Positions 29,309 to 54,347 of a stretch of DNA of 64,000 nucleotides are shown piece after piece. The stretch covers positions 4,930-68,929 of the IMG/VR virus record IMGVR_UViG_3300032011_003089; one strand, given 5' to 3'. Both the position numbers and the translations under genes were made by a program. The notes under the pieces are model-generated. The model was not told the origin of the DNA. It made no database searches and saw only the letters and a list, made by a program, of their open reading frames with translations. This DNA is from a virus. Position 1 is the first letter of the stretch. Every line of letters starts with the position of its first letter.

Positions 29309-29309
29309 T

Positions 29310-31847: not shown

Positions 31848-31859
31848 GGAATTTTAAAT

Positions 31860-36197: not shown

Positions 36198-36943
36198 ACA
36201 ATAACTTAATCATATTTTACAAAGACCAATCTAAAGATGTTTTTTCATTCGCTTTAGATACCGACGAGCAATCAGCCTTATCTAAATTCGAGAAGATGAG
36301 GCCCAACGTCAATAAAGAAGATATAGTTAAATACTTTTACATCACCGAAGATAAAACGCCAGCGGACACATACGGTAAATACTGTGAGCTCACGGAAAAT
36401 AAAAAGATGAAATTAAATTTCCGTAATTTACTCATCGATAAAAGGGTTGAAGAGATACGCAAAAAGAGAGACTCTATCTTGACAGGACTAGATGTTCCAT
36501 TCATGAAGTCTCTAGAGGAAGATAACGACCAAGTTAAAAAGCACATCGTTAAAATGAAAAACTTCTTGAGAGATTTACCAGATAATTTTAAATTCCATTT
36601 AATGGAAACTGAAGAGGATATAATTAAGTATAATCCCTTTGGTAATATTTTTGAAGTCATTGTGATAGATGGCGGCAAAGGATACACCAAGCCGCCAAAG
36701 GTAACCATTGACTCGCCAAGCAACGGCTTTCAAGCTGAAGCCATGGCCTTCATAAAAGACGGTAAAGTGTCAAGGATAGAGGTTACTGAGACTGGATGCG
36801 GTTACAACTTCGTTCCTAGCGTAACCATAAAAGATAAAAAAACAAAAAATAAATGTATAGCTATGTGCGGCGTACCGCAAAACTGCTTCTTAACCGAGGA
36901 GCAGCTTTTGAATAACACCAAGTCTCATTACTTGGTGTCGTAG
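36194..36943 (+). CDS. Tail-associated protein (fibre-chaperone-like segment + GGxGY..P.VTI repeats)
   Basis: IRKKRDSIL..LD...FLRDLP; VIDGGKGYTKPPKVTI and ETGCGYNFVPSVTI. Confidence 0.55.
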   Translation: MNNNLIIFYKDQSKDVFSFALDTDEQSALSKFEKMRPNVNKEDIVKYFYITEDKTPADTYGKYCELTENKKMKLNFRNLLIDKRVEEIRKKRDSILTGLDVPFMKSLEEDNDQVKKHIVKMKNFLRDLPDNFKFHLMETEEDIIKYNPFGNIFEVIVIDGGKGYTKPPKVTIDSPSNGFQAEAMAFIKDGKVSRIEVTETGCGYNFVPSVTIKDKKTKNKCIAMCGVPQNCFLTEEQLLNNTKSHYLVS

Positions 36944-39900: not shown

Positions 39901-42900
39901 TTCATCCATAGTCTTGCCTTGTTTGGCCATGGCGCTATATCTTTCATAGGCTTTCGTAAAGCTTACCTGTGATTCGAAAAAGTCCTTCCTGAGGGATTCG
40001 CTAGCTTTCAGTCCTTTTTCCATCTCTTTGACGGTTGCATTGACATCATCAACCGCCTCTTGGACTGTGCTTTTATTTTTATTGTTTATAGATTGGGTGG
40101 TTTCTCCTTTGGGTTTTGGGGCGGCAAGATTATTCTTCTTCAGTCTTTCTCGAGCCGCTAACACGCTCTGTTTTATAGTACCTAAGAAGGACCCTGGTTC
40201 GTTTAGTGCGGATTGGGTTAAATTTCTGCTCTCGGGGTGTCTATTTTGTAAGCCAGCGGAAGCGTCTTTCACCTTTTGTTGAGCGGTCTTTATTTTCTCT
40301 TCTAAAGCTGGGTAATATCCCGGTTTCATTTCACCTCTATCCATGTAAGGCTTAGAGTTAGCTTCGATGTGCCCCTTGTTTTGGTCTATTATCTTTTGTT
40401 GTTGGGCTCTTTCTTTTTTTAGATTCTCAAGATGTTTCTTTTCAGCAGCTTCCGTTCTGGTGTCTCTTTCGTGGCTGTAAGAAGGTAAGGCGTTAAAGGT
40501 TGAGTCTGCCGCCATTTCTTTGCGAGCCATCAGCGCGGCTATTTTTTCTAAATGTAAATTCGTTTCATAGTTCTGCCTGTGGGCTATAACGTCTTCTTCT
40601 GTAACTGCTGCCGCGTTTGGACCTTCAAACCCTAGCCTCTTCATTTCTGTGTCGTGCTCTGCCTGTTCTTTTACTGACCTACCCCAATCAAAACTTCCCG
40701 CCTGAGGGGTTAATGGTTTTATTTTTTCTTCAGCGGCAGCTATGGCTGCTTTGCGCTCGTCAAGTTCTGCTTTGTTTTTTAACAGAATATCCAAGTCAAG
40801 CTTGGCCGAGTCTACATCAAATTGTTGAAAACCTTTAGATGTAAGAGAGCTTCCCTCGGCTTGTGACCTTTGGCCTGGTATGTAGCTCGAAGCCGAATCT
40901 ACCAATTTCTGAGCTGCTTTAGCTATAACACCCTTGGCTTTATCCATGCCAGAGTGCTCTAATCCGTATTTACCTTTATCAACAACTGCTTTTATAGATT
41001 CTAGCGCGAAAGATAACTTGGTCGAAGCCGGTATAACACTACCCGTAAACCAAGCTTGATTAAATTTACCGTAAGCAGTGCCTAATAAGCCGGTCATTTT
41101 GTCCATTGCGCCAGAAAGGTCCCCAGAAGAAGACGCCACCTGCTCGAGGTTCATTCCTTCAACCGCGCTTGTATCTATTGGTTTTACTGGGGATTTTGGG
41201 GCTTTGTAATCAAAGCCTTCGCTCTTTAGTTTGGTTTCTGGGACCAAATTTTTTCTTAAAAGTTTAATTGCCTCAACTAATTCTGGGGTAGCCTGTTGTT
41301 GCCTTTGAAAATGCTCCAATAACTCATCGAACACTAAGGCGCCTTCACCAGCGCCCCCTTCTTTCCCCGCCAAATCCGAGGCCATCGTATAAAGCATTCT
41401 CTTCACTTCGTTTTCATCCAAGCCGTCTGTCACCATGCCGTATCTTTGGCCTCCAGCTTTATCCAACACCCTAACTATAGACTCTAAACCAGTTAAGTTT
41501 GTTTTATCCATTTTGGCTATTTCCGAAGCCAACATATCCACGCCCCTTCTACTGTCTTGAACTGTCTTTTTTTGCTCAATTAGTACATCATCTAAATTAA
41601 CTGGGATGCCTCTTTTGTCATCGAAAGTAAATTCACTCTCTGAGGTGGTAGCAGACAGGCGGTTCCTAGCTTCAAGTAAAGCATTCCCTTCTTTTATTAG
41701 GGCGTTTTGTAAGTCTAATCTTGCGGCTTCTTTTGCTCGGTTCCCTCCAGCATTCCTTTCCGTTTCTATATCTAGTATTTGCCTGAATAAAGAGTTATGG
41801 TGCGCGCCCATGTTTGATACAGAAGCTTCTCTAGTGCTCATCCTCAGGGCCTCGGCGGCGCCCCCATCTTTGCCGAAGCCCGGAATGATGCCAAAAGCAG
41901 CGCGTTCCGAGTAGTCCGCTGTCCATCCCGGTCCTTGAGCCCTTACCTGTTTTGCTTGGGCTGTAAGTTGTTGCGCTAACTTTAGCTGCTCCTGAGTCAT
42001 TCCCTCGGTTGTTCCAAGCCGCGCAAACGCAAGCATTTTGTCAAAAGTTTCCCCTTGAGCGTTATTGTCCTTAGCCATTTCTTTGGCGATGTTAGCTAAG
42101 TATTGCATTTGGGTATCGTTGCCGGTTTCGGCTGCTCTTAGATACGACATAGCGCCCAATATCCCGCCTAAATCCATTTCTTCTTTATCCACTGCCCCTT
42201 GGCCAGACCTTATGTTGGGCGAGCCCGTAGCTATGCCGCCTATAAGAAATTCTGGGGTGTCAGTGGTCCATGCTTCATCATACCCTCTAGCAGATAGCTT
42301 CTTCCTAGCCTCTTTACCCGTCCAAGTTCCTTTGAAGCCCCGTCTCTCTTCAGTTAAGTCTGCATCAGAAGCGGCGCTCGCAGCATTCATTGCCTCTCTA
42401 GCCCTTCGCGCTTCGCCAGAGGCAGCTCTATAGTTGGCCATAGCGCCTTTCCCCGCCTGAACTACTTCAACTTCTTTTTGTTTTTGTCTTTGGTCGGTAA
42501 ACGCATTTGTGATAGCTTCTTGGTATCTTTGAAGTTGGCCACTCAAATGCTCATCCATCAAGCCTATGTCGGTAGATACCTGCCCTATGCTGCTATCAAC
42601 CTTTAGAAAACCAGCAGCGTCAACGTTAGCTACCCCATTAATTACTTTGCCAAGGTTAACTTGGCCCTTAGGTATTTCACTTACGCCATTAGCTTTCAGA
42701 GCGGCGTCAAAAGCCTTAACGTTTTGGCCATACAAGTCTTGAGATTGATTACCTACCAAGACGTTTAATACTTTAGAGTTCTTATTCATCTCTGCAATAT
42801 CTTCAGACATGGATTCGAGCTTAAGCTCAGAGGTGATTTGTTTCGCAGCTATATCATAAGGGTCTGGCATACCACCTTCTTTAGAGAATGCTTTACGAGC

Positions 42901-45900
42901 CTCTGCGGCGTCACCCGTTCTAATCGCCATTTGCCTTTGAGCCATAAACATTTGGGCTTGAATATCTTGAGCCCTAGAGACCATTGCGCCTTCAGCAAGC
43001 CCCATAGCAGCCGAGTTATCCGACATGTCGAACATGGGCATGGACTGCCTAATAATCTTTAACAATTCAAAGTCTGCTCTGCCTTGGTCTACCTGAGCGC
43101 CAGAATAGGACGCTTTCAATTGGCTCCCAAGAGCAGTAGCGAGGTCATCAAAACCCTTAGAAAACATAGTTTGACCGCCCTTTTCAAAACCTCCAGCTCC
43201 TCCCATCATTTTCAATTCTTGGGTTTGTCTTATCATGCGCTTTTGGTTGTCGGCTTGAATAGCGCTCATTGTAAGCTCCTGAGCTTGCTGTTGAATCATT
43301 ATTGAAAGTTTATCGGCAAGACTTTCTTCTTCTCTTTCTAGCTGTTTTAAAATGTTATCGGTCAGAGCTTGCGCTTCTAATTGGTTATACCCAGCGTCTA
43401 GTGAGGCTTGTTTTATTTCTCCGTTAATCTTTTTTAAATCTGCCAATTTATCCTTGGAGTTAGTTAGTATTTTAATACTCTTTTGGACAACCGGAAGTAG
43501 AGTCTCTTGAGAGTTGGCGACTCTTGTGAACGCTCCTATTTGTGCTTTGCCTTGAGCGTTCTGGTCTTTTCTAGCTAGTAACTCATTTGTTTTCTTTGAG
43601 GCTTCAGTAAATTTTCTTAAAGGAATCTCTAGAGAAGCAAACGCCGCCTTTGAAGTTTCGGCTTGCATTTGCTTTAAGAATTTGGCGTTGATACCTGTAG
43701 CTCTAGTTTGCGCTTGGGTCGCGGCTTTACTTCCTTCTGTTTGGTACGCTGCCGCTCTTTCGGAAGAGCCCTTCGTAATTTCTTGAGCTCTAGCGATATT
43801 AAACGCTTGCGCGTTCCTCGTCATTTCGTCAAATGTTTTGGCTTTATTTTTTATGATATCTACAGTAGAGCCAAGGGTGGCGGAAAAAGAGGCTAGCTCT
43901 TGATTTAAGGTTTGGAGGTGTGCGCTATACTGCTCTTCAAATTTTCTTCTATCTTCTAGTATTAGTTGGGCTTTCTTAGCTCCTTCTGCTCCCTTTTCTA
44001 ATTCTTTAAAGTAATCTTTTATTCTCTTCGTGTACGCGCCCACGTCAGCAGTACCCAGAGTATTGACAAAATCAGAAAAATCATTACCAAGATAACTTGT
44101 ATCTATGTCAGAAAAACTACCTATACTGTTTACGTCTAATTTACCAGATTCTATAGCCTTAAGAACCTCATCTTGATTCACTCCTCCGCTTCTGATTTGA
44201 GATTTAGCGACGTTCTCTATTCTCTTTCGGTCCGACAAGCTATCGGCGTCATTGAATATTTTCTTATCGCCCCATTCTCCTGCAAATTTTTCTTGCAAAT
44301 CAAAACCCTTGGTTGCCGCTTCCAAATCGGACTTGTCTCTTTGAAGGTTTGTTGTAATCTCTGCAAATACTTCTTTAATTTTTTCTGCGTCACCCGAGGC
44401 CGCTATAAATTGAGACCTAAATTTATCAGGGATGTCAGTAATAGATTCAGCCATTTTTCTTTGAAGGGAGGCTAGGTCTTCTGGATTTGCTTCAACTGGC
44501 TTTTTGAACATTTGGTTCATCTTGTTAACGGATTCAAGGTATTTTTGCCCAGATTGCTGCACCTTGTTAAGAGCTTCCCCGACTTGCTCCAGTTCTTTTC
44601 TAACTTGAGCGCCTCTTTCTTGAATTTCAGCTTTTACGAGGCCGTCGGCTAAAGATTTAATTCCCATTGTAGCGCCAGCTATACCGCCGATTGCTGCGCC
44701 CCAAGGGCCAGCCATTGCGCCCATTTGCGCTCCGGTGGCGGCATAAGAAGCTGCCATTCCAGCGCCTTCGACTGCCGCTTTACCTTTCAAATCATCTTGG
44801 TTCATGAACTGAGAAGCCTGACTAGCAAGCATAGGCGCGGTAGCGATTATATTTGAAGCGCCACCGCCCTCGATAAAGCGCATAGCTCTGCCGCCTTTGC
44901 CGAACATTTTGCCAGCTTTCTTTTTCTCTGCTGCGGCTTTATCTCTAGCTTCTCTTTCGGGTTTTGTGGCTTCTTCGATTGCTTCAAGTTTTTCTTTAAG
45001 TTTTGCTTCAGATTCTTTGACGCTCTTCTTGTTAACTCCTGCCGCCTCTTGGGCATTTTCATTACTCTTTTGAGCTTTCCTGACGGTCTCCTCTTGCGCA
45101 TCCATAAGCTCTCTAGCTTTTTGTTCTCTTTCATTAGCTAGCCTCTCTTCTTCTTCTAGGCTTTCAATTTTCTTATCCCAAAGCTGTTTAGCTCTTTCTA
45201 TTGCTTTTGATATACCCTCTTCGCCTGTTTTGCCTTTGCCTTCGGCGCTTTGCAGCCACATCTCAGCACCACCAGCTTCTCCTTCATATCCAGCTTCTCT
45301 GGCCACCTGAGCCAAGCCTTGTTGTTTAAAGGCTTCTGGGCCATCTTGTATTGCGTACTGCGTTCTTGCCTCCGACGCACGAGCTTCATTACGGCTGCTG
45401 TCCCACAACCCAAAAAGGATTTCTCCTTTGTTCTCCTGTTGTGATAGATTTTTTTGTTGGTCTAATGCGTTTTCATTGTAAGACATTGAAGCTTCTTGTT
45501 TCTGTTTATGCTGCGCTTCCGCCTCAGTTTTCCCTAACTTTTTTTCTTTTTCTTCTAAGGCTTGCTGTGTTTTATCTAAAGCTGCATCAAATCCTTTTAA
45601 GCCCTCGCTTCCTAATTGTTTGAAATTATTTCCAAGGTCTTTGATTCCACTAGCTAAAAATCCCATTGAAGCCATCATCATGGCGCTATCCATTGCACCA
45701 CCAGCAAAGTTGGGGACATGGCCTTGGCTTGCGCCTTGGGTTTGAACTTCACCTATGCTTTTACCGCCCTTCAAATGCATGTTAATAGCATTAGTAAGTG
45801 AGCCCTCTGTCGTATTGTAAACGCCTATGCCGCCGCTCTTTCCTAACCTTCTATCATATCCAACTCTAGGCTGTCCTTGACCAGCTGCTTTTTCGCGGCC

Positions 45901-48900
45901 AACAGCTTCTTTGAGAGCGTCTCGAGAAAAATTAGGGACAAGGCCTTCGGCGTATGTTCCAAGGGCTTGTAGCATAGCTTTGTGCGAAGCGCCCTGCATC
46001 TTATCAAACTCTTGCATTTTCTTTTGGTTTGCAACCATCGAAAAAGCCTTCGAACCAATAGACTGAATAACCATATCCTCCAACTCTGTGGTATACTGTT
46101 TAATCATGTCTTGGTCTTTAGCGAGCAAGCTGAATTCTCCTTGGGTTGGTATTTTCCCCATGCCCACATGCTGATAACCCGACCCTGCGTCCCTTCCTCT
46201 TAGCGGGTTAAAATCAACAGACTCTAATTCGTGGAGCTCTGGGTTGCTGCTGGCCACTAACTCGTGGCTCATGTTCGTGCCGTGTACGTCAGAGTTTACG
46301 ACGTTGCCATGTATAGCTTTGTTTGCTAAACCTTTTTTCTTGACGAAATCTTTGGTTGAAGTAATTAGGATTCTGTTGTAGTCTGGATGGTCTGTTTTAA
46401 AGAGCTGCTCTAACGTGCCATAGTACTCTTCTCCTACAGATGATTTCGGGAAAACCGCTCCCCATCTTCCATACTGACTAGCTAAGCCACTCGCTGATTG
46501 ATGTATCTCAGCTTTAATTTCTTCTTTAGTAACATTTCTTTCTTCGCGCAGCATCTCGGGAGAATCCTCAAAACGAGTATTTCGTCCTCCCTCTCTCGCT
46601 TCTTTACTTAGAGGGGCATTTAATTTACCGCCGTGCCGCATCATCTTGCCGTACTCGGCTGCTGATACGCCATTTTTAATGGCCCATTTTCTTTTAGCGA
46701 CGTTTTGTTTAGCGTCTTCTTCATTCCACACCGCGTTAAAGGTAGGTCTACTATCGCCTTTTATGCCGTGCTTTTCTTTTAACCTATTTCTTTGGCCCGC
46801 ATCTTGGGCATTAAAAGAGACCGCCCCTGGAGGGGGGACTTTTATGCGTCCGGTTCCGTATTGAGATATATACTCGGGAACGCCCATAGCTCTTAATGCT
46901 TGGTTTTGGCTGGCAGCTACTCGCTCTGGATTGATTTCTGACTCGAGCTCTCTTCCTCCATATTTGTCTTTTGTTGCTTTTTGGTCATCCTTGAAGCGGA
47001 ACATCTCCGCCGAGTTAAGACCCTTCGTTGCCACTCCTCGACCTTTCATCAAGCGCCCTTGTTCTTCATCGTATAGTCTCTTTTTCCTATTTGCTTGCCA
47101 TTCTTGAAATTCTGGAGAGCTGGCGTCGACCCCTAAATGCCGCTGCATTGCCGAGATATCCATACTGGCGAAGTTTGGAACAAAGCCGCCAGACTTCATG
47201 CCCATCGGCCCAAACGACTTAATCCAGTCTTTTTTCACGGCTGGGTTTGCGTTAAGCACGCCCATGGCTTGTTGGAATCTGTCGGGCGTAGTCACACTAG
47301 ACAAGCCATGAGTCTTAATGTTATGACCAAGTATGTCAACTAAATACTTACTAAAGCTAGAAGCAATATCAACAACTTTGCTTGGGTCACGCTTACTACG
47401 CTCATGAAGAGCGAGTTTTAATTGTAAATTCTTTTGGGTTTTTAATTTCTTTGCGATTGATTCTCCCACTTGGAAGTCCGAGCCTTTTTTCGCTCCCGGC
47501 TTAGCCTCGCCTAATGCGCCAGCCATTTCGTTTTCGAACTTAATACCAGCCATTGCGCCGCTTGTTCCTTCTGGGTCCCAATCAGCACCAGCGACACCAC
47601 CGACTAAATCATAAGCTAAACCATCGAATAAATGGGGCACCTCATTAAGCATGGTCCGCCAATGAGCTCCGCTCTTCTTAATTTTTCTAGCGGTAAGTCC
47701 AGAGGCAATCATTCTTCCAGAACGACCATTCATATCAGTACCGACTACAAGAGTTTCATCTTCTGGGCCGCGAATCATTCTCATGCCAGCGGTCATTTTC
47801 TTGACTTGAGCCTCAGACATATCTTTGCCCATAGCGCCCTTTCTGCCAATCATCGTTGTGCCGTAATCTTTTTCGTGCAAGCCCTTGTACGCGAGGTTAG
47901 GAACAAAGCCTTGCGAAGCTAGGTTTAAATTCAGCCCCAACTTACCCCAAGCCTTACCACCATAACCACTCAGCCTAGCTTTGAAGGCTTTTCTTTTTTC
48001 TTGGAACATGCCTCTAGCTTCAGAAATCTCGCTTAGTTCACCCTTCTTTTTATTCGCCCCGTGCTTAGCTTTAAATTTACTAAAGTCTTCCTCTAGAAGA
48101 CCCAAGCCTTTATTAGCTTTATCTTTTCTATCTTGAATATAAGACGCGCGTTTTTGTAAAACTGGAATATTGTTTTTGATTACTCTGAATATTTCTGGCG
48201 GAAGATTACTTTTTAAAGTAGTTAAATCTCCATCAACAATCGCTTTTCTGATTTTAGTCCCACTAACGCCATCAAGCCTACCCTTAACAGGAACAACTCC
48301 TTTATAGGTTTTAGAGAATCTATCAGTCAAGTCTTCTTTGCCGCCCGAAACTCTATCTGCACCCAAGGCAATCTTGGTGTCTTTCTTTCTCATCCTGTAG
48401 GCTTTGCCATCGTGCTCAAAATGCTCTTGGACTCCAGCGTTGCTAGGTATAGCCATGAGGTTTGGATTAGAAAGTTCAATTAGCTTTGCTTTTTCTCTTG
48501 GTGATAAGCCTACATCGTACTCTCTGTTCGCGCCTTTACTAACAAAGGCTACATCAGCGCCAGCTTGCGTTGCCATGTCTGCGTGTCCCTTCGTAAAGGG
48601 CGCGAACGCACCTATTGTAGCCGTAGCTCCTTTTAACTCATTAAGCTTCTCAAACCCCTCCGCCTCCTTCAGTGACATATCGGCCTGTCTTTCAAATACT
48701 CCTAGTTTTGAAGCATACTTTTCAGCAAGCAAAGCCTCAGTAACTACACCAGAAGATGAACCAAATTTTTGTTTAGGACTTCTACCGAAGTTTGTATCAG
48801 ATGTGCCAGCTCTAGCTTGGTCAGAACGCTTCTCACGCATGCCTTTAACTACATCTTTGGCCCCTTTTAAAAAAGTTATTTTACCAGACTTCGTAAACTC

Positions 48901-51900
48901 TGGGCTGTCAACAACGGTTTGCGCAGCTCTCACTACAACTAACTGGTCCGATGGGTCAAGGTCAACAGGGTCAGTTACAAAGTTTCTTCCACCAGCGCGC
49001 TTTATAGCTTCGGTTGTTTTGCCAATACCAGCCGTACCAACGATAGTCTCTGAAATCTGCCCTCTTTGCGCGGCTTGGTTCACTATTGATTCGAACACTT
49101 GCCTAACCTCTTTACTACTGAGAGGCATACCCATGGACTGAGCTAGTTGGTCTTTATCTAGAATTTTGGTTGCAAAATTAGGAACGAATCCGCCGAAAGA
49201 TTTAAGGCCAGATTTTTTCTGTTTAGCTTTGAAGTCGGCGGCGATAGCCTTTTCCATTTCTTGCTCTTTAACTGCCTTTCCACTTAAAACTTCTATGAGA
49301 CGAGCCACCACGCTTTCGTCTTCACCTTTGTAGGCTTGCATTTGTTTTACAAGCTGTTTACTTCCTGTTTGTGTTCCTTCGATGTATTTTCTCGCCAAGC
49401 TAAGTTTGACGCCTGAATCATCAGTAGTTCTTTTGGCGTCGATTCTTTCGTAATTACCAGATAGCCCAATGAATTTAGCGAGGCCCCCCATAGTTACGGT
49501 ATTGGATGGAGTAAAGTCCCACCTTCTTCCGTCCTCTTGAACGGGGTCTGCCATTTTATTAATGAAATGGAATACGGCAGCTTCCATAGCTCTACCCTCT
49601 TTAACCTCTTGGGTTTGTTTGGTTTTGCCTATTTTTTTATGCGTCATGTAGTCGCGGAACACCTTATCAAATTCTTTATTCTTAAATGATAATCTTGCCC
49701 CAGACGCTTTAAGGTCATCTCTATTGGGGTTATCTACTGGTATCGTAGAAGACTGAATAGAAAACTGTATAACGTCATTAGGGCTAAATACTTTATCTAA
49801 ACCCTTAGGGGTTTTCAATCCATAACCGTGCTCTCCTTTTCTTGAATCAAAAAAGTCATCCAAGCTAATATTCGCTGACATGAGGCCTTTCTTACCGAAA
49901 GCCCCAAACGCAGCACTTTTGAGCGCATCCACTCTTAATTGAGTAGAACCAAATAAATCAATACCCTTAAAATCAGTAGGCAAGTCAATAGGTTTGAAAT
50001 CTTTAGAGCTTCCTTTATCAAATCTAAAACCTAATTTTGAGTCGCCTTGATAAATAGGCGCGCCCTGCTTCTTTAAGAAGTCTCTAAACCCAGCGTATTT
50101 TGAATCATCTGGAGCCCCAACCCACCCACTTTTCTCGCCGGTGCGGAAAACGTTTCTTATAGATTGAGTTGGTCCGCCTTGCAATCTTACGCCAGCCAAT
50201 TTAGCTTCTTTTCTTTCTTCTTCAAATTGCTGTAAGGCTTGTGGCGGATAATATTCTTTAGCTATCTCTTCCGCAGTCTGCATCTTGTACATCTTTTCGA
50301 GTATGTCAGACTCGTTCCATTTTGGGCCAGCCTTAACTTTCTGAATCCACTCTTTTGTTGTTAGCTCAGCAAAGTTAGGAATAAACCCTTGTGCGGCGTA
50401 AGGGTTAAATCCGTGCTGTTCTGCAAATTTCTGCTTGTAAGCTTTACCTGCATCACTGCCGCTCGGAGGCATGATTGCTGGCTGGGACATACCACCAAAG
50501 GTCTTTACTGTTTCGGCGGAGTTGTAGGTTACCCTACCAACGCCTTGCACATTCATTTCTTTTACGGTGCCCGGTTTATAACCGCCTTGTAAAGCCCCTA
50601 TTGTTTCGGTAGTGGCTCTTTCTTTCTTTTTGTTGAAGTTAGGAACCAAACCTCCAGCAAACATATTTGTTGGTCTCCAAGCGCCTTCGGTTTGGCCTCC
50701 ACCTTGCATAGCTAAATTTAAAGCACCAAGGTCTACGCTCGTCAAGTTCCTAGCCATGGCCGCTGATAGGTCAGCGGACTGAGCTAAAGCGAAATTTCTA
50801 GCCCTAATACTTTCTAGAATTTTATCCGATACCCTAACCAAGTTTTCTTCACTGCTTCTTGCGGCGTCGATTAAATCTGGGTTTTTAAGTAGAATGTTTT
50901 GAATAAGCATTTGCATTTCGGCTTGCTTCTTCGCGCCCTCGTTCATTCCAGCGAAACTTCTAACTGCGTCTATGCCAAACTTACTGAAGCTAAACAAAAG
51001 CTTACCAACAAGAGCGCCTAAGATAAGCATGCCCGGTCCCTTTAAGATGTTGCCTATGCCCTCCAGAATGCCCTTGCCCATCTTCATGCCAATTGAGCCC
51101 GCGTCAGACTGGTCATCCATACCCTCGAGCATTTCGTTAATCTCTTCCAAGCTGTTTCTAAGCGCTGGGCCTATCGTGATGTTGCCGATGCTTGCGCCAA
51201 CTTTTAAAAGATTCTGCATACTCTCATTAACTAGGGTGTTAAGAGTTTTGTTTAACTCCGCGTTCCTAGCTATAGCTTGGTCAGTAGAGTTTACAGAAGT
51301 TCCTAAGGCTCTATCGTAAATTGAAAATTGCTTGCCTAAATCACCAATAGCGGCTTTCAATACGTTTACTTGGAAAACACCACCAACCATTTCAGCGGAA
51401 ACGGCCTGTTGAGATGGAGTCAGGCTATCGTAAGCGTTGGCAAAGTTCTGTAGCGTTTGAATGGCTGGTAAGGTCGCTCCTTGGGCGTCTCTAACTACAA
51501 CCCCAAAAGCTTCTAAATCAGATATAACTTTTGGCCTCTGTAGTCTGGTAAAAATAGTCTTTAATGAGTTACCAATCACAGAACCGCCACGAGCCGTTAC
51601 TTGCTGTGCGGTTGTAACCATCGCAATCAATTGGTCCAAACTAACCCCAGCGTCCTGAGCGGAACTACCAACACGACTCACGGCTTTAGCTAGGTCAGCA
51701 GAGCTCACGGCAAATGCGGCATCAACATTAGCAAGTTTATTGACTAACGCTGTAGAGGTGATAACGGTTTGGTTGAAGCTGTTTATAGTGGCGGTTACGG
51801 CCTCAACAGAAGATTGAACGTCCAACCCAGATAGGCGAGTTAGAATCATAGCGTCAGAAGTTCGCTTGAGCGTCTCTTCTACCGCTAAACCTTGACGAGC

Positions 51901-52338
51901 AAATTCTAAAGCCGAATCAGAAACAGCTTCAAATGTTTGCCCTGTATTTTTTGCTATTGAAAATAGCTCGTTCCCGAAAGTTTTAAGGCCTTGCGTGCTG
52001 GCCATTAAGATAACATTAATCTCCGCCAGCTTATGCTCAAGCTGAACAGCAGAACGAACCATGCCTTCAATAGAGCGGGTTACGTTATATATGATGCCAG
52101 CCGACGCCCCGAACGCGATAACACGAGCGTTAGAAGCTTCTAAGGATTTTTCGAATTCGCCAACAGCACCAGTAATTTTACCTAATGGTTGGGTATAAGA
52201 TTTAGAGAGTAGCCCACCCTTAGATGATAATTGCTCGACCTTTCTAAGCGCACCTGTGATATCCTTCTCCGCCTTTCGCAAAGAAGCTCTATCCGCAACC
52301 GTTTTTACTGTTACTTCCGCTGTGGGTATTATAGCCAT
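36928..52338 (-). CDS. Giant tape measure protein (5136 aa) with internal motif-delimited enzyme-like domains
   Basis: N-terminal TP901-type TMP domain (EFARQG, GNSLKTIFTRL), long Ala/Glu/Lys helical regions, C-terminal FAxGG..DxVPA.L..GE.V domains and RPGGML end; located between tail tube and tail tip genes. Confidence 0.93.
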   Translation of the reverse strand: MAIIPTAEVTVKTVADRASLRKAEKDITGALRKVEQLSSKGGLLSKSYTQPLGKITGAVGEFEKSLEASNARVIAFGASAGIIYNVTRSIEGMVRSAVQLEHKLAEINVILMASTQGLKTFGNELFSIAKNTGQTFEAVSDSALEFARQGLAVEETLKRTSDAMILTRLSGLDVQSSVEAVTATINSFNQTVITSTALVNKLANVDAAFAVSSADLAKAVSRVGSSAQDAGVSLDQLIAMVTTAQQVTARGGSVIGNSLKTIFTRLQRPKVISDLEAFGVVVRDAQGATLPAIQTLQNFANAYDSLTPSQQAVSAEMVGGVFQVNVLKAAIGDLGKQFSIYDRALGTSVNSTDQAIARNAELNKTLNTLVNESMQNLLKVGASIGNITIGPALRNSLEEINEMLEGMDDQSDAGSIGMKMGKGILEGIGNILKGPGMLILGALVGKLLFSFSKFGIDAVRSFAGMNEGAKKQAEMQMLIQNILLKNPDLIDAARSSEENLVRVSDKILESIRARNFALAQSADLSAAMARNLTSVDLGALNLAMQGGGQTEGAWRPTNMFAGGLVPNFNKKKERATTETIGALQGGYKPGTVKEMNVQGVGRVTYNSAETVKTFGGMSQPAIMPPSGSDAGKAYKQKFAEQHGFNPYAAQGFIPNFAELTTKEWIQKVKAGPKWNESDILEKMYKMQTAEEIAKEYYPPQALQQFEEERKEAKLAGVRLQGGPTQSIRNVFRTGEKSGWVGAPDDSKYAGFRDFLKKQGAPIYQGDSKLGFRFDKGSSKDFKPIDLPTDFKGIDLFGSTQLRVDALKSAAFGAFGKKGLMSANISLDDFFDSRKGEHGYGLKTPKGLDKVFSPNDVIQFSIQSSTIPVDNPNRDDLKASGARLSFKNKEFDKVFRDYMTHKKIGKTKQTQEVKEGRAMEAAVFHFINKMADPVQEDGRRWDFTPSNTVTMGGLAKFIGLSGNYERIDAKRTTDDSGVKLSLARKYIEGTQTGSKQLVKQMQAYKGEDESVVARLIEVLSGKAVKEQEMEKAIAADFKAKQKKSGLKSFGGFVPNFATKILDKDQLAQSMGMPLSSKEVRQVFESIVNQAAQRGQISETIVGTAGIGKTTEAIKRAGGRNFVTDPVDLDPSDQLVVVRAAQTVVDSPEFTKSGKITFLKGAKDVVKGMREKRSDQARAGTSDTNFGRSPKQKFGSSSGVVTEALLAEKYASKLGVFERQADMSLKEAEGFEKLNELKGATATIGAFAPFTKGHADMATQAGADVAFVSKGANREYDVGLSPREKAKLIELSNPNLMAIPSNAGVQEHFEHDGKAYRMRKKDTKIALGADRVSGGKEDLTDRFSKTYKGVVPVKGRLDGVSGTKIRKAIVDGDLTTLKSNLPPEIFRVIKNNIPVLQKRASYIQDRKDKANKGLGLLEEDFSKFKAKHGANKKKGELSEISEARGMFQEKRKAFKARLSGYGGKAWGKLGLNLNLASQGFVPNLAYKGLHEKDYGTTMIGRKGAMGKDMSEAQVKKMTAGMRMIRGPEDETLVVGTDMNGRSGRMIASGLTARKIKKSGAHWRTMLNEVPHLFDGLAYDLVGGVAGADWDPEGTSGAMAGIKFENEMAGALGEAKPGAKKGSDFQVGESIAKKLKTQKNLQLKLALHERSKRDPSKVVDIASSFSKYLVDILGHNIKTHGLSSVTTPDRFQQAMGVLNANPAVKKDWIKSFGPMGMKSGGFVPNFASMDISAMQRHLGVDASSPEFQEWQANRKKRLYDEEQGRLMKGRGVATKGLNSAEMFRFKDDQKATKDKYGGRELESEINPERVAASQNQALRAMGVPEYISQYGTGRIKVPPPGAVSFNAQDAGQRNRLKEKHGIKGDSRPTFNAVWNEEDAKQNVAKRKWAIKNGVSAAEYGKMMRHGGKLNAPLSKEAREGGRNTRFEDSPEMLREERNVTKEEIKAEIHQSASGLASQYGRWGAVFPKSSVGEEYYGTLEQLFKTDHPDYNRILITSTKDFVKKKGLANKAIHGNVVNSDVHGTNMSHELVASSNPELHELESVDFNPLRGRDAGSGYQHVGMGKIPTQGEFSLLAKDQDMIKQYTTELEDMVIQSIGSKAFSMVANQKKMQEFDKMQGASHKAMLQALGTYAEGLVPNFSRDALKEAVGREKAAGQGQPRVGYDRRLGKSGGIGVYNTTEGSLTNAINMHLKGGKSIGEVQTQGASQGHVPNFAGGAMDSAMMMASMGFLASGIKDLGNNFKQLGSEGLKGFDAALDKTQQALEEKEKKLGKTEAEAQHKQKQEASMSYNENALDQQKNLSQQENKGEILFGLWDSSRNEARASEARTQYAIQDGPEAFKQQGLAQVAREAGYEGEAGGAEMWLQSAEGKGKTGEEGISKAIERAKQLWDKKIESLEEEERLANEREQKARELMDAQEETVRKAQKSNENAQEAAGVNKKSVKESEAKLKEKLEAIEEATKPEREARDKAAAEKKKAGKMFGKGGRAMRFIEGGGASNIIATAPMLASQASQFMNQDDLKGKAAVEGAGMAASYAATGAQMGAMAGPWGAAIGGIAGATMGIKSLADGLVKAEIQERGAQVRKELEQVGEALNKVQQSGQKYLESVNKMNQMFKKPVEANPEDLASLQRKMAESITDIPDKFRSQFIAASGDAEKIKEVFAEITTNLQRDKSDLEAATKGFDLQEKFAGEWGDKKIFNDADSLSDRKRIENVAKSQIRSGGVNQDEVLKAIESGKLDVNSIGSFSDIDTSYLGNDFSDFVNTLGTADVGAYTKRIKDYFKELEKGAEGAKKAQLILEDRRKFEEQYSAHLQTLNQELASFSATLGSTVDIIKNKAKTFDEMTRNAQAFNIARAQEITKGSSERAAAYQTEGSKAATQAQTRATGINAKFLKQMQAETSKAAFASLEIPLRKFTEASKKTNELLARKDQNAQGKAQIGAFTRVANSQETLLPVVQKSIKILTNSKDKLADLKKINGEIKQASLDAGYNQLEAQALTDNILKQLEREEESLADKLSIMIQQQAQELTMSAIQADNQKRMIRQTQELKMMGGAGGFEKGGQTMFSKGFDDLATALGSQLKASYSGAQVDQGRADFELLKIIRQSMPMFDMSDNSAAMGLAEGAMVSRAQDIQAQMFMAQRQMAIRTGDAAEARKAFSKEGGMPDPYDIAAKQITSELKLESMSEDIAEMNKNSKVLNVLVGNQSQDLYGQNVKAFDAALKANGVSEIPKGQVNLGKVINGVANVDAAGFLKVDSSIGQVSTDIGLMDEHLSGQLQRYQEAITNAFTDQRQKQKEVEVVQAGKGAMANYRAASGEARRAREAMNAASAASDADLTEERRGFKGTWTGKEARKKLSARGYDEAWTTDTPEFLIGGIATGSPNIRSGQGAVDKEEMDLGGILGAMSYLRAAETGNDTQMQYLANIAKEMAKDNNAQGETFDKMLAFARLGTTEGMTQEQLKLAQQLTAQAKQVRAQGPGWTADYSERAAFGIIPGFGKDGGAAEALRMSTREASVSNMGAHHNSLFRQILDIETERNAGGNRAKEAARLDLQNALIKEGNALLEARNRLSATTSESEFTFDDKRGIPVNLDDVLIEQKKTVQDSRRGVDMLASEIAKMDKTNLTGLESIVRVLDKAGGQRYGMVTDGLDENEVKRMLYTMASDLAGKEGGAGEGALVFDELLEHFQRQQQATPELVEAIKLLRKNLVPETKLKSEGFDYKAPKSPVKPIDTSAVEGMNLEQVASSSGDLSGAMDKMTGLLGTAYGKFNQAWFTGSVIPASTKLSFALESIKAVVDKGKYGLEHSGMDKAKGVIAKAAQKLVDSASSYIPGQRSQAEGSSLTSKGFQQFDVDSAKLDLDILLKNKAELDERKAAIAAAEEKIKPLTPQAGSFDWGRSVKEQAEHDTEMKRLGFEGPNAAAVTEEDVIAHRQNYETNLHLEKIAALMARKEMAADSTFNALPSYSHERDTRTEAAEKKHLENLKKERAQQQKIIDQNKGHIEANSKPYMDRGEMKPGYYPALEEKIKTAQQKVKDASAGLQNRHPESRNLTQSALNEPGSFLGTIKQSVLAARERLKKNNLAAPKPKGETTQSINNKNKSTVQEAVDDVNATVKEMEKGLKASESLRKDFFESQVSFTKAYERYSAMAKQGKTMDEVSAEAEKDIALIIEKKQALMQTLLRFDTDFDWNVTKDELESGVKDIAHRKTEEAEKRGEFGKGANFDAEKKAKHYEAQRKKAEEEYKLLLNKAKEKDKEIAGVRAAAKIQTEYMAKAEENEKFLNKLKDSAKGMTSIYAGIADESTQLEAQLRLFADYQTLVAKNARATAQTDLAKASVGMGFSEDVVAKASQVAEQIAQSFVLRTSAKNKARQTIDDFEDDISAKMADYGTSEIKSLTSKGDYGGLQKDFDDAMIKHGNDMQKIIADTEISEQLRGHLQDIIEKWGTEKEGEVRKLTRQVNFELVGQNFDNMTRMFEEGGVKFEKVTAQYNGLVAGILDGTRKLDDADKDGKTTRQRIIEYNKAEVADSTTKLENVNQFSANEYKASAFASAAQKQTSQFIESPGIRTDAELETHISARTKTLELASKGYSNELQNTIKLYEAGVIPTAQYRQALEKANEAAIEAGEYGFKNLAETVRAGFSYSQQDYFKDINRMGAEFAQDFRTGTASAFGEAIKGTKTLKEAFGDMFKNMADKMLDNALQMGVNSIFDAVLGRGGKMKKGGEVKGYASGGVVNGGSGTKDDVPAYLTKGEYVIRKSAVNAYGQQFFDALNSSNVVTAEKGGAIARLANIRRQELTKARDLRTAGIQSFNYKQFGEKDKEDWLGRKTGEKELETHRGYRVNLNNSLTPQRIEAIKTIAEKYPEVGKNLDRDLFDESSVEIGEGSYKVHLKNKYVMDNLQRPEMGKLIQDSKLSAYAMTNENNPQNKYKFEKMDTFFNYQKEKLEFLKTQDEAMEKHQREKQGRRYGFLFGAASMLVSGALTGGKGAFISPTQKAKGGLINAPRKFAMGGMNSDNVPALLMGGEYVLNKDTVDEYGTEFFDRLNTGKLAKFAAGGLVRKPHTITAMPGSKGASSNDGSGIGGSTTTTNNINIAVNVDSNGNVTADTTDASGAGDLTEQESKELAARIKTSVMDVIIQQKRPGGMLYDTK
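45706..50652 (-). repeat. Seven dispersed G-[FLH]-[VI]-P-N-[FL] peptide motifs in the TMP
   Basis: 50635-50652 GLVPNF; 50371-50388 GFIPNF; 49174-49191 GFVPNF; 47893-47910 GFVPNL; 47170-47187 GFVPNF; 45928-45945 GLVPNF; 45706-45723 GHVPNF. Confidence 0.9.
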
Positions 52339-52374: not shown

Positions 52375-53388
52375 TTATACTCCATGCAATTTTATCATGT
52401 CTTCCATACTTAATGTCCCACCTTTTTTGCGTATTTCTTCGTTTAAATCGACTGTACCTGCATCTAATGGGTCTTTAGTCATGCCTAGGGCTTCCATATC
52501 TTCCTTGGTTGCGCCAACCACCGTTGAGGCCACGCCCGTAGCTTCCTTGCCGCCGCCATTTTCTTCCTGTTTTTTCTCTATTTCGTATAGCTGCAATAGT
52601 TTATCTGGGTCTTGCATGACATCTTGTGAAGGGGGGTGTTTCATCTCGGAAAGCATGTGTTTATAATACCTTCCGTAAGCAAACAAATCGGCTTGATGAT
52701 ACGTTAGATTAACCACTGGCTTGCCAAAGAATATCATTGGGTTGTCTTTGCAAAGATGAAAATTATTAAGAAAGAAACTACTCAAAGCCAGCCGCTTCAT
52801 ATTTTTGTCTGAAAATTGCCCCGAAACTAAATTATATACAGTAACCAGCTTCGAAAGCTCTATATCATTCAACTCATCAAACTCTTCCTCATTGAACAAG
52901 TTGTTTTCACACTTTCTATCAGAGTATAAAGTCAAGAAGATATAGTAATCATTAATTCTTTTGTCTGCGTATATCTCGGAGGTTAAACCTATTAGGTGCG
53001 TTTTCTCAGTGATTATTTTATCCAGCTCTTCTTCGGCTTCTTCTATTTGTATTTGCAAGGCGTCTTTTTCGGACTTGAGAAGCATTTTACTCTTAGTCTC
53101 ATTCATTCTGGATATGAATTCTATAAACTCTTTCTGTTTTCTTTCTTTCTCTTTTGTCCAAGTTCCTTCATCCAAAAGAATTTGCAGCTTCTCTTCGTTG
53201 GATGGCAAGCCTTTTTGAGTAGCCTCTAAGAAGTGTTCTTCTCGTCTTTCATCTAGAACTTCTGTGTCCCATATGGTGAGATGCTTGATAAAAATTTTTC
53301 CGTAAGTTTCATCTTCAAAGTCAGACCTACCCCTTAATATGTCGGCGTAAATCTGCCTAAGCTTCTCTTTTGGGACTAAATTACTCAT
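52375..53388 (-). CDS. Putative tail assembly chaperone
   Basis: Immediately upstream of TMP; acidic and helical; positional inference only. Confidence 0.5.
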   Translation of the reverse strand: MSNLVPKEKLRQIYADILRGRSDFEDETYGKIFIKHLTIWDTEVLDERREEHFLEATQKGLPSNEEKLQILLDEGTWTKEKERKQKEFIEFISRMNETKSKMLLKSEKDALQIQIEEAEEELDKIITEKTHLIGLTSEIYADKRINDYYIFLTLYSDRKCENNLFNEEEFDELNDIELSKLVTVYNLVSGQFSDKNMKRLALSSFFLNNFHLCKDNPMIFFGKPVVNLTYHQADLFAYGRYYKHMLSEMKHPPSQDVMQDPDKLLQLYEIEKKQEENGGGKEATGVASTVVGATKEDMEALGMTKDPLDAGTVDLNEEIRKKGGTLSMEDMIKLHGV

Positions 53389-53447: not shown

Positions 53448-54347
53448 TTATTCCCCCTCCGAGCCTTTATTGGATTCAACAGTGGTTTCTGTGACTTTTT
53501 CAGATTTTTGTTTATTTGATTTTTTCTTTGACTCTTCTTTCTTTGGTTCTTCTTTCTTTGGTTCTTCTTTGGGTTCTTCTTTAGCTGGCGCAGACTCTTT
53601 AAATAACTCCTCACCAGAGTCTTTCAAAAGCTGTTCGAACTCTTCTTGACTTGTGACTCTTCCCACGTACCAGAAGCTAACATAGTAAACCAGTTTACGC
53701 AGAAGCTCATCATGGTATTCATCTTCAGATTCTTCAAGAGCATCATAGGAGCTGAGTCTATCATCAAAACTTTGCCCAGCGAATACAGCCTCTTCTGTGT
53801 CGTCCTCGTTAATTACGTGAGAAAGCTGAAGCGTCCACCAAAGGATAGTTTTGTTTCTAGCTCTATTTTCTGCCGTTTGCTCGAATAGAGAGGACTGTGC
53901 CATTTCAAAATCTGTCAACTGCTGTCTCAAGTCCGCCGAGGTTTCTAGGGCGTCATTTAGCTTAGACTCTTCATCTGTATTTCGTTTTTTAGCTGGCGTG
54001 GCAGACATGCGTTCGATGTCTATTTGCTGCTCGTAAAGCTTAATATAAAGGTCTGAATATCTATCTTTATCATCTTCGCTTAACACGCCCCCATCGTTAG
54101 AGAATCTTTTAGCGAGCAGCGCTCTAGTAAGAAGCCCAGCCTTGATTCCTTCGGATAATTTAACTCCGTAAAACAGCTCGGCCTCATCAAATAGAGAGCG
54201 AGTAGGCTTCTTCAAAAATACCTTTTGTTTAGTGGGCCTAACAACTTCTTTTTCCGTAGTCACAGTTTCGCCCTTGTCATTTTTAGACTCTTCTTTTACG
54301 GTTTCCTTAATGTCCCTATCCAGCGTAAATGTAAATAGTTTTTTCAT
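53448..54347 (-). CDS. Putative tail assembly chaperone with low-complexity EEPKK tail
   Basis: Between tail tube and TMP; KVFLKKPT; C-terminal KEEPK repeats. Confidence 0.5.
   Translation of the reverse strand: MKKLFTFTLDRDIKETVKEESKNDKGETVTTEKEVVRPTKQKVFLKKPTRSLFDEAELFYGVKLSEGIKAGLLTRALLAKRFSNDGGVLSEDDKDRYSDLYIKLYEQQIDIERMSATPAKKRNTDEESKLNDALETSADLRQQLTDFEMAQSSLFEQTAENRARNKTILWWTLQLSHVINEDDTEEAVFAGQSFDDRLSSYDALEESEDEYHDELLRKLVYYVSFWYVGRVTSQEEFEQLLKDSGEELFKESAPAKEEPKEEPKKEEPKKEESKKKSNKQKSEKVTETTVESNKGSEGE

Follow-up and report, generated by a model that had tools for sequence, protein, structure and literature searches.

A modular array of cassettes separated by a conserved peptide in the tape measure protein of uncultured aquatic phages

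Introduction

What is the role of a short peptide that recurs seven times in the tape measure protein (TMP) of a phage, and what is carried between its copies? The question is raised by a viral DNA from IMG/VR (record IMGVR_UViG_3300032011_003089, positions 4,930 to 68,929), of which the whole stretch of 64,000 nucleotides is here termed the window. The original prediction proposed that the peptide is a protease site or cassette junction and that the TMP carries exchangeable effectors delivered at infection. The proposal was evaluated by comparing the array with those of related phages, by structure modeling and by comparison with published systems.

Results

The TMP gene and the layout of the array

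The gene located at 36928-52338 on the minus strand encodes a siphophage TMP of the TP901/PF10145 type. The N-terminal part matches PF10145 (PhageMin_Tail) at residues 129-317 with an E value of 1.2e-26, 18 TMP PHROGs match the protein, and the C-terminal end matches the TMP family phrog_339. The array of six cassettes and seven motifs comprises residues 563-2211, an N-proximal stretch of the TMP. The features are as follows, all on the minus strand.

36928..52338, minus strand: whole TMP gene, open for 5,136 codons plus stop
50653..52338, minus strand: N-terminal TMP part, aa 1-562; PF10145 at aa 129-317, hydrophobic segment at aa 431-456, pI 6.2
50635..50652, minus strand: motif 1, GLVPNF, aa 563-568 (pattern match)
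50389..50634, minus strand: cassette 1, the S1 module, 82 aa; pI 9.6, invariant QPAI(M/I)PP, no known family
50371..50388, minus strand: motif 2, GFIPNF, aa 651-656 (pattern match)
49192..50370, minus strand: cassette 2, 393 aa; singleton family in the data set, pI 9.4
49174..49191, minus strand: motif 3, GFVPNF, aa 1050-1055 (pattern match)
47911..49173, minus strand: cassette 3, 421 aa; cytidylyltransferase-like nucleotidyltransferase, pI 9.8
47893..47910, minus strand: motif 4, GFVPNL, aa 1477-1482 (pattern match)
47188..47892, minus strand: cassette 4, 235 aa; family 7, found in 12 TMPs, pI 9.7
47170..47187, minus strand: motif 5, GFVPNF, aa 1718-1723 (pattern match)
45946..47169, minus strand: cassette 5, 408 aa; family 21, found in 5 TMPs, pI 9.0
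45928..45945, minus strand: motif 6, GLVPNF, aa 2132-2137 (pattern match)
45724..45927, minus strand: cassette 6, the S6 module, 68 aa; pI 9.9
45706..45723, minus strand: motif 7, GHVPNF, aa 2206-2211 (pattern match)
36931..45705, minus strand: C-terminal TMP part, aa 2212-5136; rich in A, E, K and Q, pI 6.1

The pattern G-[FLH]-[VI]-P-N-[FL] was recovered at all seven predicted positions (aa 563, 651, 1050, 1477, 1718, 2132 and 2206) together with the flanks that had been quoted, and the limits that had been given for the array correspond to its outermost motifs, motif 1 starting at base 50652 and motif 7 ending at base 45706. The distances of 88, 399, 427, 241, 414 and 74 residues, originally reported as segment lengths, are correct as start-to-start distances, whereas the segments themselves are 82, 393, 421, 235, 408 and 68 residues long. 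No match to G[FLH][VI]PN[FL] was obtained in 2,000 shuffles of the window's TMP.

Form and distribution of the motif

Family-wide, the motif is a linear motif of 10 residues, [AK]-[SA]-x-G-[FL]-[IV]-P-N-[FY]-[AS], and a sequence logo of 490 distinct instances revealed conservation confined to positions -3 to +6. The asparagine is present in 95% of these instances and in all seven copies of the window, with serine, glycine and threonine as rare variants, and is followed by phenylalanine, tyrosine or leucine. All 564 copies of the strict motif in 105 family TMPs are located within arrays; neither the 203,565 residues of these TMPs outside the arrays nor the remaining 1,214 ORFs of these loci, 312,301 residues in all, contained a copy. 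In four of 109 long family representatives, S1 is present but the motif occurs only in degenerate G-h-[IV]-P forms. A single degenerate motif-like sequence, FGIIPGFG, is present near residue 3483 in the C-terminal part of the window's TMP.

The seven copies in the window vary at third codon positions, which bears out the codon differences reported at the outset. Among 79 related loci, the synonymous-codon entropy within the motif compared with the rest of the genes was 1.64 versus 1.71 bits for glycine, 1.29 versus 1.46 for proline and 0.68 versus 0.67 for asparagine. Since these values are close to the gene background, the motif is conserved mainly at the protein level. A mild codon preference was detected within the motif relative to elsewhere, with CCT for proline at 0.65 versus 0.32 and GTT for valine at 0.70 versus 0.48.

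Modularity among relatives

The 443 cluster representatives of the array family all derive from uncultured aquatic phages, and the family is represented by 249 contigs in IMG/VR; neither the S1 nor the S6 module was found in any cultured phage. The array is thus shown to be a modular platform common to hundreds of uncultured aquatic phage lineages, the N-terminal domains of the family TMPs being only about 40% identical. The 475 cassettes of the family fell into 69 families, including 31 singletons. S1 is always the first module and S6 the last in nearly every complete array, and the other cassettes occur at different ranks among the relatives. These results show that gain, loss and reordering of cassettes take place at the motif, between the conserved S1 and S6, consistent with the expectation that the content between motifs would vary among homologs that retain the motifs and flanks.

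Alignment of the window's TMP with its relatives by BLAST yielded 190 internal segment ends, 137 of which lie within 10 residues of a motif; the chance expectation was 14.8, with a maximum of 31 over 2,000 randomisations. Homology therefore breaks at the motifs, and the designation of the motif as a cassette junction is borne out.

Structure models

The AlphaFold model for the array of a minimal relative, based on an alignment of 44 rows, had a mean pLDDT of 67.8 and revealed three folded domains between the motifs. The segments with pLDDT below 50 were residues 1-26, 102-109, 367-376 and 441-462, and the motifs at 21-26, 103-108, 370-375 and 445-450 each lie within one of them, so that the predicted domain boundaries coincide with the motifs in four of four cases. 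The model for the window's own array had a mean pLDDT of 45.6, too poor for the boundary comparison. Two computational findings had been named beforehand as contrary to the proposal, namely domain boundaries away from the motifs and invariant content between them, and neither was obtained.

Content of the cassettes

The six cassettes of the window belong to six different similarity families, in agreement with the description of the intervening segments as largely unrelated. They are uniformly basic, with pI values of 9.0-9.9 compared with 6.2 and 6.1 for the N-terminal and C-terminal flanks of the TMP, and 91.5% of 459 cassettes had a pI above 8.5. Enzyme motifs had been ascribed to several segments, a claim borne out in part, cassette 3 alone having a family-level match. 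Cassette 3 contains a P-loop-like sequence GTAGIGKT, identified by eye, followed by a cytidylyltransferase-like nucleotidyltransferase domain with matches to PF16581 (3.4e-8), phrog_3041 (1.1e-5) and cytidyltransferase PHROGs. Cassettes 2, 4 and 5 had no match in Pfam, PHROGs, NCBIfam or PDB sequences. The ESM Atlas yielded no usable match for cassettes 2 and 5; among proteins of similar length, cassette 4 had only two short, probably fragmentary matches, and cassette 5 had none among proteins of 224-714 residues. Comparison of the window's TMP with Pfam, PHROGs and NCBIfam revealed no peptidase family, a result to be read with the provision that cassettes without a known fold could hide one.

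Besides cassette 3 of the window, only 3 of the 20 cassette-family representatives scanned reached a Pfam enzyme family, and the remaining 17 had no credible Pfam match. SNase and GNAT domain cassettes are present in relatives. An ADP-ribosyltransferase read by eye in two relatives was not confirmed by Pfam.

Neighboring genes

The TMP gene lies in the tail module, between the genes for two acidic proteins and the tail-tip genes, and this gene order is kept in related loci. Homologs of lambda M, L, K, I and J are located at 28760-36197 on the opposite strand, convergent with the TMP gene. The following neighbors bear on the handling or processing of the array.

52375..53388, minus strand: acidic 337-aa protein, pI 4.99, directly upstream of the TMP gene; no known family
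53448..54347, minus strand: acidic 299-aa protein, pI 4.89; no known family
30485..31192, plus strand: lambda-gpK-like minor tail protein with Prok-JAB and NlpC/P60 peptidase-type domains

In 68 of 80 related places, made up of 79 loci and the window, the TMP gene is preceded by a member of the gene family of the 337-residue protein; that of the 299-residue protein is upstream of the TMP in 66 related places. The former is a candidate chaperone for the basic array and the latter a candidate tail assembly chaperone. No protease gene was found beside the TMP gene, where the conserved upstream genes gave no family match, and the gpK-like gene is the only recognizable peptidase-like gene found in the tail region. 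The gpK-like protein is a candidate processing enzyme; against this, gpK-like peptidases are common to lambda-like tails without arrays. No immunity genes were seen with the cassette array.

Discussion

The best reading of these results takes the motif as a signal for processing, or as a junction signal, in a cargo-carrying TMP, and the sequences suggest that the host probably receives an interchangeable set of proteins from the tail. In its full form, to which a probability of about 0.5 is given, this reading describes an array of independently folding basic cassettes that would be expelled into the host, with the motif as a proteolytic signal recognized in trans. Seven disordered 10-residue junctions of identical type would separate the six strongly basic cassettes, and the motif would be recognized as a processing signal comparable to the S-F-V-P-R/A site (the slash marking the cut) in the TMP of phage T5. 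The cassettes would be carried within the tail lumen or along with it, would be expelled ahead of the DNA and may act in the host as early enzymes or binders, possible examples being the nucleotidyltransferase of cassette 3 and, in relatives, the SNase and GNAT domains. The cargo function is suggested because the cassettes are basic and some belong to enzyme families; the finding that most cassettes have no recognizable function argues against it. Folded cassettes of 25-45 kDa would not fit the tail-tube lumen as trimers, which also counts against this reading. Further points against it are that no protease gene was found beside the TMP gene and that four family representatives have S1 with degenerate motifs only.

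Processing is suggested because F-V-P is common to the motif and the published site at which the T5 TMP is cleaved. According to Linares et al. 2023 (PMC10038345), cleavage of the T5 TMP pb2 takes place during tail morphogenesis after R1127, which separates a hydrophobic stretch from the enzymatic domain; the piece cut off remains in the tail until it is expelled into the periplasm. The context of R1127, GNANSFVPR/AEGG, contains the only [FLIVMY][VI]P[NR] in pb2. The likeness is confined to three residues, with the arginine of T5 in place of N-F. Furthermore, pb2 (pb2* and pb2C) has one site and one C-terminal muralytic domain, whereas the array has seven sites and six N-proximal cassettes without a muralytic signature. 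Homology to pb2 around the site was not detectable, and T5 was not among the best 25 of 157 tblastn records retrieved with the N-terminal 562 residues.

Delivery is suggested because the TMP of Thermus phage P23-45, gp96, is fused at its N-terminal side to a virion RNA polymerase with activity in the host, as described by Chaban et al. 2024 (PMC10770324). Like the window's TMP, gp96 is giant (5,002 residues), and from that description its N-terminal part is an enzyme working in the host after infection, a precedent that N-proximal TMP cargo can be delivered and active. In contrast to the array, gp96 carries a single fixed enzyme, and it contains neither a copy of the motif nor even the loose form [FLIVMYH][VI]P[NR].

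The same precedent enters into the alternative in which the motif is never cut and serves for docking or handling. The array would then remain one polypeptide with the TMP, and a partner bound to each junction would hold the basic cassettes unfolded or in order so that they can be loaded into the tail and pass along it. The main text of PMC10770324 describes the TMP-fused polymerase without mention of TMP proteolysis, containing no instance of 'proteoly' and one unrelated instance of 'cleav'. The partner might be the two upstream acidic proteins, the electronegative lumen of the tail tube or a host factor; the recurrence of acidic proteins upstream of uniformly basic cassettes is in accord with such binding, as is the disorder of the motif in the monomer model, expected for a short linear binding motif. 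However, chaperones must also handle the long C-terminal part of the TMP, and the motif is absent from all TMP residues outside the arrays. The near-invariant asparagine followed by phenylalanine, tyrosine or leucine, and the likeness to the T5 site, are a better fit to a scissile site. Docking without cleavage is accordingly a possible but rather doubtful explanation.

A bolder form of the processing reading is unlikely. It holds that the peptide is a portable, self-sufficient cut signal related to that of T5 by ancestry and belonging to a tail-associated processing system not yet described, that it is cut between asparagine and the following phenylalanine, tyrosine or leucine, and that the injected basic enzymes form a customisable, short-lived set. 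The bacterial N-end rule (ClpS/ClpAP) marks such N-terminal residues for rapid degradation, and a cassette released by a cut after asparagine would start with one of them and so have a built-in short lifetime. Were this form true, any domain placed between two copies of the motif would become tail cargo.

The motif could also be a recombination joint, an in-frame linker kept for crossover between cassettes and otherwise a mere flexible spacer. The homology breakpoints on the motif, the shuffling of cassettes between relatives and the mild codon preference are the findings that such a joint would explain. Against it, synonymous sites are nearly as variable as elsewhere and differ among the seven copies of the window, leaving little DNA identity for recombination, and a mere spacer would not keep 7-10 residues near-invariant over 490 instances in proteins with such divergent N-terminal domains. 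A recombination joint is therefore decidedly unlikely.

Least probable of all is self-cleavage, in which the motif asparagine would cut its own peptide bond via succinimide without need of a protease, perhaps triggered by tail assembly or ejection, as in the asparagine peptide lyases (coat proteins of nodaviruses and tetraviruses, type III secretion switch proteins such as YscU, and intein C-termini): the asparagine is the best-conserved polar residue of the motif, with phenylalanine, tyrosine or leucine next to it, and the surroundings of the TMP gene revealed no dedicated protease gene, but known lyases need a folded catalytic environment, whereas in the monomer model the motifs lie in linkers of pLDDT below 50 between unrelated domains, and the T5 site has arginine at the corresponding position.

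Other known systems resemble the array in part. Polymorphic toxins such as CdiA have a pre-toxin junction motif (VENN) that borders exchanged variable domains. The array resembles them in having a short conserved peptide at the exchange border, but the CdiA type has one junction before one C-terminal toxin and a cognate immunity gene, whereas in the array many junctions follow one another within a virion protein. The polyvalent proteins found in phages and conjugative elements contain 2 to 15 unrelated effector-type domains per long polypeptide; Iyer, Burroughs, Anand, de Souza and Aravind 2017 (PMC5512222) propose that they pass into the host alongside the DNA and are split by proteolysis, which is ascribed to embedded zincin-like peptidase domains. 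The window's TMP strings six unrelated cassettes in one polypeptide, of which cassette 3 alone has a family match, and no zincin-like peptidase domain was found in it by Pfam; the available text of that article mentions no tape measure proteins and describes no punctuating linear motif. The Sle1-type effectors of actinobacterial contractile injection systems combine a TMP-derived scaffold in a tail-like tube with an exchangeable domain (Nagakubo et al. 2026, PMC13277306). From the available text of that article, which reports no repeated junction motif, they differ from the array in having one C-terminal functional domain per protein and in belonging to a bacterial injection system rather than a virion.

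No description of the motif was found in the published literature searched. The claim that no such system had been described thus holds for the motif in that literature but not for cargo-bearing and processed TMPs, which are already known. Should the motif act as a signal for processing or loading, it would constitute a general rule that turns arbitrary proteins into pre-genome cargo of long-tailed phages, and the catalogue of about 70 cassette families, mostly without assigned function, would be one of candidate early take-over or counter-defence proteins. A peptide conferring cleavage or tail loading could serve as a tool. The array also bears on the origin of giant TMPs of 5,000 residues and more, and on whether their full length measures the tail.

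Tape measure gene and its surroundings

The 68.9-kb IMG/VR virus record that is the source of the window has a completeness of 44% (CheckV). A single open frame of 5,136 codons was found on the minus strand at 36928-52338. Residues 1-562 of the product matched PhageMin_Tail (PF10145, E 1.2e-26) and 18 tape-measure PHROGs, and the final 170 residues matched phrog_339, a tape measure protein (TMP) family. Tail-tip genes recognized by family matches lie on the opposite strand, convergent with this frame:

28760-36197, plus strand: lambda-like tail-tip genes encoding minor tail protein M (PF05939), L (PF05100), a K-like protein (Prok-JAB and NlpC/P60 domains), an I-like protein and a J-like protein of 1,445 aa

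Since the TMP domain and PHROG matches are accompanied by lambda-like tail-tip genes, the results indicate that the open frame encodes the TMP of a long-tailed phage.

The tail-tip run (28760-36943, plus strand), with homologs of M, L, K, I and J, converges on the minus-strand TMP gene, the last codons of which overlap the 3' end of a 249-aa ORF (36194-36943). The convergent layout is repeated in related loci; in 55 of them the J-like family lies downstream, on the minus strand. Upstream of the tail genes, an otherwise structural minus-strand run contains genes for a nucleotidyltransferase (58422-58964, minus strand; phrog_1614, 2.3e-13) and a methyltransferase (58961-59710, minus strand; PF08241, 5.2e-7).

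The C-terminal 300 aa of the TMP (36931-37900, minus strand) include, near the C-terminus, two copies of a G-G...D-(D/N)-V-P-A-(Y/L)-L-x-x-G-E-Y-V segment, and this G-G...G-E-Y-V segment is conserved across the family alignment. By eye, the start of the piece released from the phage T5 TMP (AEGGMMYPGV...GEHGTEVV) resembles it. Tandem NPYSYFN(K/R)GGSV repeats, about 6-8 copies, are located just ahead of the conserved C-terminal end in four related TMPs (P0013, P0015, P0016 and P0019); none is present in the window TMP.

The array motif

Seven copies of G[FLH][VI]PN[FL] were located at aa 563, 651, 1050, 1477, 1718, 2132 and 2206, in agreement with the positions and flanks quoted in the original prediction, and the array limits of 45706-50652 (minus strand) coincide with the outermost bases of copies 1 and 7. 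The motif did not appear in 2,000 shuffles of the window TMP. The alignment of 490 distinct instances from the family revealed a conserved span from -3 to +6 (A/K, S/A, x, G, F/L, I/V, P, N in 95%, F/Y/L, A/S) and no conservation past it. The codons vary among the seven copies, as had also been claimed. Since synonymous codons are about as diverse in the motif as elsewhere in the genes, CCT and GTT being slightly preferred, the codon comparison indicates that selection on the motif acts on the peptide.

All 564 strict motifs in 105 TMPs and their loci fall within arrays; none was found in the 203,565 TMP residues outside arrays or in the remaining ORFs of these loci (312,301 residues). A single degenerate motif-like peptide, FGIIPGFG, with Gly at the position of the motif's Asn, is present far from the array in the C-terminal part of the window TMP (aa 3483-3490, about 41890-41913, minus strand).

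Relatives and distribution

A word-index search with residues 540-2240 retrieved 26 proteins of 3,010-5,603 aa, including one (P0002) identical to the window's protein. Each of the 25 non-identical relatives contains 5-11 motif copies, always behind the N-terminal TMP part. These 25 all had a TMP domain or were fragments of such proteins, with coverage of the query stretch ranging from 70% to 5%.

A profile of the conserved first module of the array (S1) gave 249 confirmed stretches in IMG/VR, from which 80 loci were retained. Searched against 1.84 billion proteins, the profile matched 443 cluster representatives, with E <= 1e-10 for 377. S1 almost always occupies approximately residues 545-660 in proteins of 1,900-5,200 aa. 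At least one strict motif is present in 144 of the 148 representatives examined, and at least three in 93 of the 109 that are at least 1,800 aa long. In four of these 109 the strict motif is absent, and the junctions next to S1 are of degenerate G-h-[IV]-P form. The TMPs P0033, P0039, P0156 and P0170, of approximately 2,100-2,300 aa, keep S1 with no cassettes, and the junctions beside S1 in this subgroup are degenerate only (e.g. GLIPQV, GLIPHF and GIVPSR); the cassette-less subgroup may represent an ancestral or decayed state. When one genome of each prokaryote species was scanned, only 10 loci were found, all in metagenome-assembled genomes, and these bins are the sole pointer to candidate hosts. 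The family's contigs derive from aquatic samples. Neither S1, nor the conserved last module (S6), nor the array DNA matched any record in the cultured-phage collection.

Modularity of the array

The six window cassettes, of 82, 393, 421, 235, 408 and 68 aa, the first being S1 and the last S6, belong to six different similarity families. A pooled set of 105 TMPs (26 proteins and 79 loci; L068, with no S1 by pattern, was left out) was cut at a slightly widened motif pattern, yielding 475 cassettes that grouped into 69 families, 31 of them singletons. The commonest architecture is a minimal array in which a single cassette of some 260 aa separates S1 from S6, in TMPs of 1,900-2,600 aa; the middle cassette is of family 3 in 30 TMPs and of family 4 in 20. 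Almost every longer array is unique, and one family may appear at varying ranks, the SNase cassette for example being second, fourth or eighth. When the window TMP was compared with the others by BLAST, 137 of 190 internal segment ends were at most 10 residues from a motif, against 14.8 expected by chance and a maximum of 31 in 2,000 randomisations. These coincidences are mostly at the S1 and S6 borders (motif 2, 91; motif 6, 30; motif 7, 20), with only 23 at motifs 3-5. The comparisons of sequence show that the array is modular and that exchange takes place at the motif.

One related locus (L062:8351-11386) has a minimal array whose TMP frame ends about 30 residues past the final motif, giving an ORF of 1,012 aa. 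The early stop could come from misassembly or a frameshift, or the gene could be split; a real stop would make the array and the N-terminal part a separate protein.

Predicted structure

A minimal array of 470 aa (L003) was modelled with AlphaFold from a 44-row alignment; the model, with mean pLDDT 67.8, has three folded units, 27-101 (S1), 110-366 and 377-440 (S6). Segments with pLDDT under 50 include 1-26, 102-109, 367-376 and 441-462, and the four motifs (21-26, 103-108, 370-375 and 445-450) lie inside them. Since the motifs occupy low-pLDDT segments between folded units, the model indicates that the motif is a disordered peptide linking independent domains. A model of aa 1040-2230 of the window TMP (11-row alignment) had a mean pLDDT of 45.6, and 795 of 1,191 residues scored below 50; the five motifs there all lie in low-confidence stretches, a result that is uninformative given the overall low confidence.

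Foldseek with the minimal-array model gave no PDB or BFVD match at E <= 0.001, and VIA-align reached a Z of at most 4.1, across 52 residues; these blanks say little because the query comprised three domains in 470 residues. A separate earlier proposal that S1 and S6 are related to each other was not upheld, the profile comparison returning a probability of 0.5%. Both modules were modelled as helix, hairpin(s), helix.

Cassette contents

Cassette 3 is the only window cassette with family support, matching cytidylyltransferase-like nucleotidyltransferases (PF16581, 3.4e-8; two PHROGs); the nucleotidyltransferase region is preceded by GTAGIGKT, P-loop-like as read by eye. Cassettes 2, 4 and 5 had no match in any library, and NCBIfam returned none for S1, S6 and cassettes 2-5. 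The S1 profile found nothing below E 0.57 among PDB sequences. In the ESM Atlas, the leads for cassette 2 were all weak (best 0.80, below the tool's trust level), and there was no usable match for cassette 5. The word-index search found no free-standing relatives of cassette 5 and none convincing for cassette 4, two short matches to the latter resembling TMP fragments. Among 20 cassette-family representatives from the relatives, the only credible Pfam matches were to SNase (2.5e-6) and GNAT (5.1e-5).

ADP-ribosyltransferase-like cassettes read by eye in P0017 and P0018 were dropped after Pfam gave no confirmation. Visual inspection also suggested PD-(D/E)XK-like residue patterns in cassettes 2 and 4, as well as in the 260-aa cassette that is frequent in minimal arrays; no tool confirmed them.

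The window cassettes are all basic (pI 9.0-9.9), the preceding and following parts of the TMP having pI values of 6.2 and 6.1. Across the family, 91.5% of 459 cassettes have a pI above 8.5 (median 9.67). Two acidic proteins are encoded in the interval that separates the presumed tail tube gene from the TMP gene:

52375-53388, minus strand: acidic protein, pI 4.99, directly upstream of the TMP, kept in 68 related places
53448-54347, minus strand: acidic protein, pI 4.89, upstream of the TMP, kept in 66 related places

Neither matched Pfam, PHROG or NCBIfam. The pair may serve as tail assembly chaperones, with one perhaps dedicated to the basic array.

Proposed role of the motif

The TMP of phage T5 is the closest experimental precedent for a cut, cargo-bearing TMP. 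According to PMC10038345, cleavage takes place after R1127, at a point with a hydrophobic stretch on one side and an enzymatic domain on the other; the tail retains the cut piece, which is then expelled into the host. The R1127 context, ...GNANSFVPR/AEGG (slash, cut), is the sole [FLIVMY][VI]P[NR] in that protein. In Thermus phage P23-45, as described in PMC10770324, a giant TMP carries in its N-terminal part a fused enzyme that is active in the host; unlike the window TMP, this TMP contains no copy of the array motif. Since these precedents include both a cut and an enzyme-fused TMP, the best reading of the motif, to which we assign a probability of about 0.5, is that it would be a processing signal in a cargo-carrying TMP, the part of the mechanism that we infer beyond a modular array with exchange at a disordered junction conserved as a peptide. 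The gpK-like protein (30485-31192, plus strand) carries two peptidase-type domains, and such proteins are common in lambda-like tails.

The same conserved, disordered peptide might instead be a docking signal that is left uncut, a tentative alternative that we rate as rather doubtful. A bare recombination joint, considered beside both the exchange at the motif and the selection on its peptide, is improbable, and self-cleavage at the nearly invariant Asn slightly more so.

In the literature searched, no paper brings tape measure proteins together with the motif core, and the available text of the polyvalent-protein paper (PMC5512222) does not mention tape measure proteins. TMPs that carry cargo, are processed or are enzyme-fused are already known, and the window adds a six-cassette member to the motif-punctuated TMP architecture.
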